From: Escherichia phage vB_EcoS_ESCO41
Length of the DNA stretch: 50,800 nt
Direction: 5' to 3' (one strand)
Sequence record: NC_047820.1
The notes under the pieces are model-generated. The model was not told the DNA's origin, searched no databases, and saw nothing but the letters and a program-made list of their open reading frames with translations. Positions within the stretch are counted from its first letter, which is position 1, and the number at the start of each line of letters is the position of its first letter. Positions 101 to 46,057 of the stretch are shown piece by piece. The position numbers were made by a program, and so were the translations under genes.

Positions 101-207
101 TGATGGGGGGAATGATGGAGTGATGGACTACCATACAAGTTGATTTTGATTCTGGCTGAGCCATTTTTTAGCCGACGCGTAATTGTGTGTAACTCATGTA
201 TAGGGCC

Positions 208-7288: not shown

Positions 7289-7366
7289 GCTCCGCTAGCT
7301 CAATTGGAAAGAAGCAACGACCTTCTAAGTCGTAGGTTACTGGTTCGAACCCAGTGCGGAGCGCCA
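7289..7366 (+). tRNA. tRNA-Arg (anticodon UCU)
   Basis: Acceptor GCTCCGC/GCGGAGC, anticodon stem ACGAC/GTCGT with loop CTTCTAA, T-arm ACTGG-TTCGAAC-CCAGT, encoded CCA; D-arm irregular. Confidence 0.75.
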
Positions 7367-44453: not shown

Positions 44454-44627
44454 ATGGTTAAATTATTTTGCGTTAAGAACACATCTAAAACCCTTCCTTT
44501 CACTGTTAACAATCCGTACAGCGCCGAGTATCAAGGTGACGGTAACTACAAGATTTACGGCGACGATATGACGTGGATTTTTGCGCCGATTGATGGTGCG
44601 CTGGTTGAATTTATTATCGCTGACTAG
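44454..44627 (+). CDS. small hypothetical protein (57 aa, below ORF-track cutoff)
   Basis: ATG 44454 preceded by CACAGAGGATTCAATC RBS; ends TAG 44625-44627. Confidence 0.35.
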   Translation: MVKLFCVKNTSKTLPFTVNNPYSAEYQGDGNYKIYGDDMTWIFAPIDGALVEFIIAD

Positions 44628-44654
44628 CGCAATAAAAACATAACGTTAAGCACG

Positions 44655-44680
44655 GGGAGCCTTTAGGCTCCCTTTTTTTT
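44655..44680 (+). terminator. rho-independent terminator before the lysis cassette
   Basis: GGGAGCC-ttta-GGCTCCC followed by T8. Confidence 0.7.
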
Positions 44681-44759
44681 CGCTTCTTTTTCATACCATG
44701 CTAATGTATTATGTTTTTTACTAACTGAGATATTGACAAATACATAAAAGGTGGATCAC

Positions 44760-44975
44760 ATGAGAGAGGTAATTAACGCCGCTACAGCGTCAACTGGCGG
44801 GGCTGCGGTAACTGGAGCGGCAACTGGTCAAGTGACCATAGCAATAATCAGCCTTATCGCTCTAATCATTTTTGGTGCGTGGGGTGCTTACTGGAAGTTT
44901 AAGGATAGCCAGGCGATTAGGCGCGCTCTTGAATCAGGAGACTTAAAAACAGCAATCAAGATAAGGAGCAAGTAA
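44760..44975 (+). CDS. putative holin (pinholin-like); start ATG 44760
   Basis: 71 aa with one hydrophobic segment VTIAIISLIALIIFGAWGAYW and charged C-terminus; RBS GGTGG; immediately upstream of endolysin. Confidence 0.5.
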   Translation: MREVINAATASTGGAAVTGAATGQVTIAIISLIALIIFGAWGAYWKFKDSQAIRRALESGDLKTAIKIRSK

Positions 44976-45461
44976 ATGAAGCAGAAGTTGTTAATTAGTG
45001 CGGCTACAGCTGCGGCAATATACATAGCAGCGCCGCTTATTGAGCTTGTCGAGGGTGTGGAGAACAGGCCTTACATTGACATTGCTGGAGTGAAAACAGT
45101 TTGTTCAGGGATCACTGGCCCAGACGTAGTTTGGGGTAAAGCTTACAGTAACAGGGAGTGCCGGAACCTGCTGGAGAAATACATTCAGATTCATGGCAAG
45201 TATGTTCAGAACGCCGTCACCTACCCAATCGCACCAGAGACAAGGGCGGCTTTAATCAGCTTTAGCTACAACGTTGGCGGTTCAGCAATGAGGAAATCCA
45301 CTGCTATTAAGTTGATTAATCAGGGTAAGATTGAGCAGGGTTGCAAGGCTCTGGGGATGTGGAACAAAGCTACCGTTAATGGAAAAAAGGTTGTCGTTAA
45401 GGGTTTGGTGAATCGCAGGAATGAGGAGATTAAATTATGTTTAAGCGGAATTGGAAAGTAG
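44976..45461 (+). CDS. endolysin, phage lysozyme family with N-terminal SAR-like hydrophobic segment
   Basis: LVEGVENRPYIDIAGVKTVCSGITG and ISFSYNVGGSA resemble phage 21 R / P1 Lyz (Glu-Asp-Thr catalytic triad region), recalled from memory. Confidence 0.75.
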   Translation: MKQKLLISAATAAAIYIAAPLIELVEGVENRPYIDIAGVKTVCSGITGPDVVWGKAYSNRECRNLLEKYIQIHGKYVQNAVTYPIAPETRAALISFSYNVGGSAMRKSTAIKLINQGKIEQGCKALGMWNKATVNGKKVVVKGLVNRRNEEIKLCLSGIGK

Positions 45462-45838
45462 TCGCATCGGCAGTATTGCTGTCCATTTTTTTAACGGGTT
45501 GTTCGGCAACATCTGCTCTGACTGGTTTGATTGGCAGCAAGCCAGAAATTAGCGCACAGGCTGGGGCCGAAAACGTGAAGCAAACGGTAGGCGTTACCGG
45601 AAAGGTGGATAAGTCAAACGACAACGACACCACTATCAAAGATTCAAAGGTAGGAAAGGTTGATACGTCAAACGGGAAGTCTGTCAGCACATCAAGCATC
45701 AAGGCTGACACCATCATCGCTGATAAGATTGAGATCAGGAATGACTCAAAAGGCAATCTGATTGCTGGACTGGTATTCCTGTTCATCGGTATTCTGATGG
45801 TAATTTTCTATCTATGGCTGGAACGACGCAAAAAATAA
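45437..45838 (+). CDS. unimolecular spanin (T1 gp11-type)
   Basis: N-terminal lipoprotein signal with lipobox LTGC and C-terminal transmembrane segment in a single 133-aa protein; overlaps endolysin 3' end. Confidence 0.65.
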   Translation: MFKRNWKVVASAVLLSIFLTGCSATSALTGLIGSKPEISAQAGAENVKQTVGVTGKVDKSNDNDTTIKDSKVGKVDTSNGKSVSTSSIKADTIIADKIEIRNDSKGNLIAGLVFLFIGILMVIFYLWLERRKK

Positions 45839-45840
45839 AA

Positions 45841-45864
45841 GGAGCCGAAAGGCTCCCTTTTTTT
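45841..45864. terminator. bidirectional terminator
   Basis: GGAGCC-gaaa-GGCTCC with T-runs on both sides; identical hairpin to 15014. Confidence 0.7.
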
Positions 45865-46057
45865 ATCCAAATCTTTGCACCAGCAGCAACAATTCACCTT
45901 CATTATTGCACAGTGTATGCTCATCACGACGTCCGGCACGCATGGATGAGTTAAGAATTGAAAGAAGGGCTTGATTAATCCCATCCTCACTGATGCCATT
46001 CTCAGAACTGCATCTGATTATCGCGTCGATTACAACCTGGCTTTCCGAATAACTCAT
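45863..46057 (-). CDS. hypothetical protein (64 aa); uncertain
   Basis: ORF overlapping the 3' end of the upstream gene by 56 nt; weak RBS. Confidence 0.3.
   Translation of the reverse strand: MSYSESQVVIDAIIRCSSENGISEDGINQALLSILNSSMRAGRRDEHTLCNNEGELLLLVQRFG

Follow-up and report, generated by a model that had tools for sequence, protein, structure and literature searches.

What does the stretch between positions 44760 and 45838 of Escherichia phage vB_EcoS_ESCO41 (ESCO41; NC_047820.1) encode, and by which route would it let the phage leave its host? The whole 50 800 nt of DNA that was analysed, apparently the entire genome of the phage, is called the window below. We characterized the locus, on the plus strand, as very probably the lysis cassette of a T1-like siphophage, made up of a holin, an endolysin of the signal-anchor-release (SAR) type and a unimolecular spanin (u-spanin), with the functional steps read from sequence similarity. 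A reading made earlier from the letters alone (the sequence-only reading) had placed a lysis cassette here, and its coordinates turned out to be exact: 44760 is the start of the holin ATG and 45838 the final base of the spanin TAA stop codon.

Architecture of the locus

The cassette consists of three close-packed open reading frames (ORFs) of 71, 161 and 133 aa, flanked by two terminator-like hairpins. Its features, with the evidence for each, are as follows.

44654-44681, plus strand: intrinsic-terminator-like hairpin, GGGGAGCC-TTTA-GGCTCCCT, followed by a T run (hairpin scan)
44760-44975, plus strand: holin of the T1 gp13 family, 71 aa (PHROG 2877, match to T1 gp13)
44976-45461, plus strand: endolysin, GH24 / T4-lysozyme-like muramidase, 161 aa (PF00959, PDB matches)
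44988-45041, plus strand: putative SAR segment of the endolysin, residues 5-22, LLISAATAAAIYIAAPLI (hydropathy, composition)
45051-45098, plus strand: catalytic triad region of the endolysin, E26-x8-D35-x5-T41 (alignment, pattern scan)
45437-45838, plus strand: unimolecular spanin of the T1 gp11 family, 133 aa (PHROG 1804, match to T1 gp11)
45437-45502, plus strand: signal peptide of the spanin, of lipoprotein type; lipobox LTGC, with the codon for Cys22 at 45500-45502 (sequence motif)
45503-45754, plus strand: periplasmic domain of the spanin, residues 23-106 (alignment)
45755-45823, plus strand: C-terminal transmembrane segment of the spanin, residues ~107-129 (hydropathy, AlphaFold2 (AF2))
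45841-45866, no strand assigned: terminator-like hairpin GGAGCC-GAAA-GGCTCC with T runs on both strands (scan, detected on both strands)

The endolysin ATG directly abuts the holin TAA, and the spanin start overlaps the 3′-end of the endolysin gene by 25 nt. Each ORF is preceded at normal spacing by a Shine-Dalgarno sequence (AGGTGG for the holin, AAGGAG for the endolysin and GAGGAG for the spanin). The upstream hairpin separates the holin gene from a gene for a small DUF7244 protein; a hairpin with a T run is found at the equivalent position in phages GaoY1-9D, NBD2, AttikonH6, Rogue1 and T1. The downstream hairpin closes the cassette against convergent minus-strand genes, and terminators are annotated at the equivalent place in T1 and Rogue1. 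An antisense ORF of 118 aa (45430-45786, minus strand) had no PHROG match and was taken as a by-product of the coding strand.

All three products have exact matches in the public record, where they are named holin (AQY55320.1), endolysin (AQY55321) and Rz-like spanin (AQY55322.1).

Holin

The 71-aa protein matched PHROG 2877, a holin family, over positions 1-71 of 71 (E-value 4.5e-37), and aligned with T1 gp13 at 58% identity with no gaps; searched against the Pfam holin families, it gave no match at E <0.1. It has one strong membrane segment at ~25-45 (Kyte-Doolittle 2.40 at 25-43) and a basic C-terminal tail; residues ~5-24 are rich in Gly, Ala and Thr, with G14 and G19 invariant. T1-family holins have been described as class II pinholins (PMC11447400). 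The sequence-only reading had left this gene undescribed, within its own coordinates, and likewise the DUF7244 gene just upstream.

A dual-start holin/antiholin arrangement was considered and rejected. The in-frame GTG at 44751, three codons before the ATG, lies within the Shine-Dalgarno sequence of that ATG; a ribosome-binding site belonging to the GTG itself is lacking, and initiation there would add Asp-His, not a basic residue. There is also no internal Met, unlike the M1RDFLLM2 motif of phage TLS (PMC11447400).

Endolysin

The 161-aa protein belongs to the GH24 lysozymes (Pfam PF00959 Phage_lysozyme, E-value 3e-33; PHROG endolysin, 7e-46) and is 46% identical to T1 gp12. By sequence, its best relatives of solved structure are RrrD (PDB 4zpu, E-value 1.5e-25) and the endolysin R of phage 21, R21 (PDB 3hde, 5e-25); identity to R21 is ~40%, and the alignment extends into the N-terminal segment. 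The AlphaFold model (predicted local distance difference test, pLDDT, 86) had full-length RrrD and R21 as its top fold matches, with template modelling (TM) scores of 0.77-0.78. We aligned the protein with five homologues and with R21. Residues E26, D35 and T41 were invariant, and the pattern E-x8-D-x5-T was present in all seven sequences (the window protein, the five homologues and R21).

Residues 5-22 (LLISAATAAAIYIAAPLI) are hydrophobic, with a Kyte-Doolittle mean of 2.09 over the 18 residues, and are preceded by K2 and K4. Nine of the 18 are Ala, Ser or Thr, and none is Cys. The segment is less hydrophobic than the membrane segments of the spanin (2.92, 19-residue window) or of the holin. 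Comparable N-terminal segments are present in the five homologues and in R21. Cysteines occur in the protein only at positions 43, 62, 123 and 155, and all four are conserved with R21. Thus the hydrophobic N-terminus claimed earlier is there, though weak, and the claimed similarity to phage 21 R is borne out. The resemblance to SAR lysozymes holds as well, in the GH24 family, the triad, the SAR-like segment and the identity of the closest solved relatives; SAR behaviour as such is suggested by these features. Homology, together with published annotation of the family, which lists T1 gp12 and TLS gp68 among predicted SAR endolysins (PMC11447400), favours an R21-type SAR endolysin with a segment that is retained and then released upon depolarisation.

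The comparison with R21 and RrrD (PDB 3hde, 3hdf, 4zpu) can be carried further. Common to all are the GH24 fold, the E-x8-D-x5-T pattern, four cysteines outside the SAR segment and an uncharged N-terminal segment of the Ala/Gly-rich type without Cys; still, the window segment is rich in Ala and has no Gly, unlike those of R21 and RrrD. The six-residue linker TGPSGN, which in R21 leads from the SAR segment to the catalytic Glu, is absent here. The partners differ too: the window endolysin is paired with another holin family and with a unimolecular rather than a two-component spanin.

Another type of regulation is represented by the endolysin Lyz of phage P1, likewise a GH24 enzyme with an N-terminal SAR segment. 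Activation of P1 Lyz proceeds by disulfide exchange via a cysteine in the SAR segment; this route is unavailable to the window endolysin because its SAR segment contains no cysteine. Thus P1 Lyz (PDB 1xjt, 1xju; fold match to 1xjt with a TM score of 0.71) and Lyz103, both of thiol-regulated types, differ from the window protein in this respect.

Spanin

The sequence-only reading had described the 133-aa protein as combining an N-terminal lipoprotein signal with a C-terminal membrane segment, in the manner of the T1 gp11 spanin; both elements were found, and the family assignment was upheld. The N-terminus, MFKRNWKVVASAVLLSIFLTGC, contains three basic residues and a hydrophobic core; the lipobox is L-T-G-C, with its Cys at position 22 and Ser at +2. 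It conforms to the pattern of an outer-membrane lipoprotein signal: a basic n-region, a hydrophobic core, [LVI][ASTVI][GAS]C and a +2 residue other than Asp. At the C-terminus, the best 19-residue window (108-126) has a Kyte-Doolittle value of 2.92, and the segment is followed by the basic tail ERRKK. Among 1058 start variants (ORFs of at least 50 aa in six frames of the whole window) the spanin alone matched the lipoprotein-signal pattern; therefore the combination of lipobox and C-terminal segment is not a chance pattern. The cut-off for C-terminal hydrophobicity, 1.9, was reached by 23 of the 1058 variants, with the spanin well above it.

The protein matched PHROG 1804, a spanin family (E-value 6e-48), and T1 gp11 (38% identity overall, E-value 5e-27). 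Over the whole periplasmic domain 36 of 82 residues (44%) are identical to T1 gp11, while for the other homologues the identity ranges from 36% to 99%. By the published rule for the T1gp11 family (identity of 40% or more across no less than 40% of the periplasmic domain; PMC6139136) the window spanin is a member. T1 gp11, the prototype u-spanin, complements a lambda RzRz1 defect, and members of its family are nearly all found in pinholin/SAR-endolysin cassettes (PMC6139136). PMC9636201 mentions fluorescence-microscopy and genetic results from a J Virol 2018 study of gp11 localization.

We aligned nine homologues, from Drexlerviridae and Autographiviridae. In the nine aligned spanins, the window protein among them, the Gly-Cys of the lipobox (G21, C22) is invariant, and the next residue is Ser in eight and Ala in one (AttikonH6); all have a hydrophobic segment near the C-terminus, with a basic tail, and there is no cysteine in the periplasmic part of any. 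The periplasmic domain carries the conserved motif SATSAL..GLIGSKP..(S/T)AQ.GAEN.KQ. The membrane-anchoring segments diverge freely in sequence, a pattern that would be expected if selection acts only on the topology of the anchors. Sorting of the protein to the outer membrane is to be expected, because the residue at +2 is Ser and not the Asp retention signal; Cys22 would be the lipid-modified residue.

The periplasmic domain is 99% identical (83 of 84 residues) to that of GaoY1-9D (locus L001, 3533-3583). The two proteins differ in the signal peptide (22 versus 17 residues, a 15-nt indel) and in the second half of the membrane segment (45790-45838); owing to these two differences no other protein shares the 90%-identity cluster of the window spanin. 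As judged from these alignments, the anchors of the spanin evolve much faster than its periplasmic domain.

In the close relative vB-EcoS-XT34 (locus L009, 1373-1864) an HNH homing endonuclease gene is inserted on the opposite strand between the endolysin and spanin genes; this insertion removes the overlap of the two genes, which is therefore not required. In the record of Salmonella phage 36 (locus L004, 1040-1347) the endolysin annotation is split into two short pieces, and the start given for the spanin is a truncated Met (MCIALSGC); the cause would seem to be frameshifts from sequencing errors, or wrongly called starts, and not biology.

Two candidates were discarded. An embedded outer-membrane spanin subunit (o-spanin), as an alternative product of the same gene, was rejected: within the spanin gene the other frames hold two ORFs of 33 aa, neither of which encodes a lipobox, and one of which lacks Cys altogether. 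Hits to Plasmodium STEVOR (Pfam, NCBIfam) stayed under the curated cut-offs and were attributed to low complexity and the C-terminal membrane segment.

With lambda Rz/Rz1 the window spanin has in common its place as the last function of the cassette (the gene order is holin, endolysin, spanin, terminator) and its presumed role, bridging of the membranes and disruption of the outer membrane. There is no sequence similarity between them; the window spanin is one polypeptide, with neither periplasmic Cys nor predicted coiled coils. The label ‘Rz-like spanin’ used by RefSeq and PHROG thus describes function, not homology.

Relation to phage T1 and to other phages

ESCO41 belongs to the Drexlerviridae, genus Nouzillyvirus, and is the exemplar of Nouzillyvirus ESCO41; other Nouzillyvirus genomes are 87-91% identical to the window. 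Upstream of the cassette lie genes for a DNA repair exonuclease (PHROG 704) and for the 57-aa DUF7244 protein; downstream and convergent are a 64-aa ORF, a PHROG 2794 protein and a DUF3987 helicase. Gene order and flanks match T1 genes 16-14-13-12-11 and 10-9.

In the T1 cassette itself (NC_005833, 42878-43982) the products have 71, 162 and 133 aa, as compared with 71, 161 and 133 aa in the window. The spanins of both have the common lipobox type (L-S/T-G-C with Ser at +2), a C-terminal membrane segment and a cysteine-free periplasmic domain. The differences are in the overlap of the endolysin and spanin genes (1 nt in T1 versus 25 nt), in the HNH endonuclease gene that T1 has between the exonuclease gene and gene 14, where the window has none, and in the membrane-anchoring sequences, which are unrelated in detail.

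A tblastn search detected the gp11-type spanin family in 1174 phage records, including Autographiviridae podophages of Pectobacterium and probably of Klebsiella. Pectobacterium phage Nobby (Autographiviridae; locus L008, 1447-2684) and Klebsiella podophage RothJ (no lineage in its record; locus L006, 1495-2726) have a gp11-type spanin in genes ordered spanin-holin-lysozyme. The periplasmic domain of the window spanin is 59% identical to that of RothJ, compared with 44% for T1 and 36% for Rogue1. The other RothJ products are barely related to those of the window: the lysozyme is 30% identical over 100 aa and the holin 26% (E-value 1e-4). These comparisons suggest that the gp11-type spanin gene may be exchanged between phage families on its own.

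Taken by itself the spanin does not indicate a T1-like phage, because the gp11 type is also found in podophages of the Autographiviridae. The sequence-only reading was right in calling the phage T1-like (the proteins are identical to those of ESCO41, a member of the Drexlerviridae, and the synteny agrees); support for this comes from the synteny and not from the spanin alone.

Observations that weigh against the assignment, and alternatives

Several of our observations weigh against the assignment. With respect to expression, no sigma-70-like promoter passed a consensus scan of the interval from the 44654-44681 terminator to the holin gene. Two sequences in this interval were considered as a cassette promoter, and neither was convincing. 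One is TATTAT, conserved ~48 nt upstream of the holin ATG in an alignment of six phages. The other is a perfect TTGACA at 44734-44739, shared with GaoY1-9D and NBD2, which precedes the holin ATG by only ~20 nt; downstream of it we found no acceptable -10 element placed such that the ribosome-binding site would stay in the transcript.

With respect to structure, AF2 run with nine sequences gave a helix at residues 105-132 of the spanin (pLDDT ~90), and residues 23-90 were left at pLDDT <50 with no secondary structure. The periplasmic domain of the gp11 family has been described as a short helix with at least four beta elements after it (PMC6139136). Alternating runs of hydrophobic and polar residues in the window spanin, e.g. 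TIIADKIEIRN, are compatible with strands and prove nothing. The ~85 periplasmic residues would bridge the envelope only if they were largely extended, and the absence of a compact predicted fold is compatible with that.

The remaining adverse points bear on particular components. Residues 5-23 of the holin are weakly hydrophobic (Kyte-Doolittle 0.66), and a near-zero loop precedes the strong segment. It is possible, if on balance doubtful, that the holin is a single-pass protein (N-out, C-in) making its own kind of lesion, rather than a pinholin with two segments like S68 of phage 21: the segment at 25-43 is the only strongly hydrophobic one, only Gln24 separates it from the weak stretch, and the absence of a Pfam holin match points the same way. 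Against this, the N-terminal segment of the window holin is rich in Gly, Ala and Thr and has the invariant G14 and G19, and the first segment of the phage 21 pinholin is SAR-like and Gly/Ala/Thr-rich as well. The sources on the T1 holin disagree, with a single membrane domain in a RefSeq note, which would suit the single-pass topology, and two in PMC11447400; T1-family holins are classed as pinholins in both PMC11447400 and PMC6139136. Also, the weakly similar holin of the RothJ podophage has, in a pairwise alignment, an insertion of 11 residues at the junction of the segments. Either topology is compatible with a working cassette, as a SAR endolysin needs depolarisation only.

For the endolysin, a cleavage site of the Ala-x-Ala type is possible near A12-A14. 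If the N-terminus were a cleavable Sec signal peptide, the enzyme would not be of the SAR type; it would be secreted as a soluble, active protein and controlled in some other way. The basic n-region (K2, K4) and the small residues at A12-A14, which would satisfy the -3/-1 rule, would suit a signal peptide. Yet the hydrophobic stretch runs on beyond these sites to I22, half of it being Ala, Ser or Thr as in known SAR domains; the most favourable site, which follows A19, has a blocking Pro at +1; and the catalytic Glu26 comes only four residues past the segment. R21 and RrrD were crystallised as full-length proteins that retain their N-termini, and their alignment with the window protein enters the segment; T1-family endolysins are called SAR endolysins in published annotation. 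Moreover, premature lysis of the host would result from an active muramidase that was freely secreted. Given these considerations, we find cleavage improbable and retain the SAR reading of the endolysin.

That the 133-aa protein is some other small lipoprotein (of the Cor/Llp type, acting in superinfection exclusion) or the o-spanin half of a pair with a missed partner, as could be thought from the Cor lipoprotein encoded by T1-like phages and from the RefSeq name ‘Rz-like spanin’, is most improbable: along its length the protein is a homologue of T1 gp11, which replaces Rz/Rz1 experimentally (PMC6139136), it carries its own inner-membrane anchor and is encoded by the last gene of the cassette, neither the 33-aa other-frame ORFs within its gene nor any other scanned ORF of the window has a lipoprotein signal, and T1 Cor is located elsewhere, beside the tail genes.

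Proposed course of lysis

The steps proposed here for the cassette of holin, SAR endolysin and u-spanin follow work on T1 gp11, R21 and lambda to which PMC6139136 and PMC9636201 refer; from T1 gp11 and R21 we infer the membrane topology, the lipid modification, the SAR release, the pinholin behaviour and the membrane fusion. The 71-aa holin would build up in the inner membrane, trigger at a set time and collapse the membrane potential. The endolysin, exported beforehand by the Sec system, would until then be tethered to the inner membrane in an inactive state by its SAR segment, which is weakly hydrophobic and would not be cleaved. Depolarisation would free it into the periplasm, where it may refold as shown for R21, without disulfide exchange, since its SAR segment has no cysteine. 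The muramidase site formed by E26, D35 and T41 of the released enzyme would then degrade the peptidoglycan.

The spanin, with lipid on Cys22, would be sorted to the outer membrane while the inner membrane keeps hold of its C-terminal segment; in this way one polypeptide with ~85 periplasmic residues would span the envelope through the peptidoglycan mesh. With the peptidoglycan gone, it would be able to move and collapse, disrupting the outer membrane, probably by fusion with the inner membrane.

The DUF7244 gene upstream of the cassette

One more gene could have a part in lysis, located as follows.

44454-44627, plus strand: DUF7244 (SH3-like) protein, 57 aa, counterpart of T1 gene 14 (Pfam PF23896, PHROG 4788)

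The protein matched PF23896 over its full length (E-value 4e-30) and PHROG 4788 (E-value 9e-35), and is 45% identical to T1 ST14. DUF7244 has been described as a standalone SH3 domain and proposed to have an accessory role in the lysis module of the Drexlerviridae (PMC13164509, 2026). The SH3-like protein could bind peptidoglycan or the SAR endolysin and so tune lysis, as proposed in that work. The gene may not be co-transcribed with the cassette, given the hairpin at 44654-44681 between them. We consider it unlikely that DUF7244 is a fourth working part of the cassette, a reading related to that of a gp11-type spanin gene moving between phage families independently of the holin and endolysin genes.

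Apart from these genes, a single tRNA gene was found in the window, that of tRNA-Arg (anticodon TCT) at 7289-7366 on the plus strand.

Significance

The cassette is already known and annotated in the public record, and there is nothing new in it. How u-spanins disrupt the outer membrane is an unsolved question, for which the window copy offers no special handle in comparison with T1 gp11. The significance of the locus lies mainly in correct annotation: the product name ‘Rz-like spanin’ would be better given as ‘unimolecular spanin (T1 gp11 family)’, and, judging by its genes, ESCO41 would use the T1-type route of lysis, with a SAR endolysin and a single-protein spanin.

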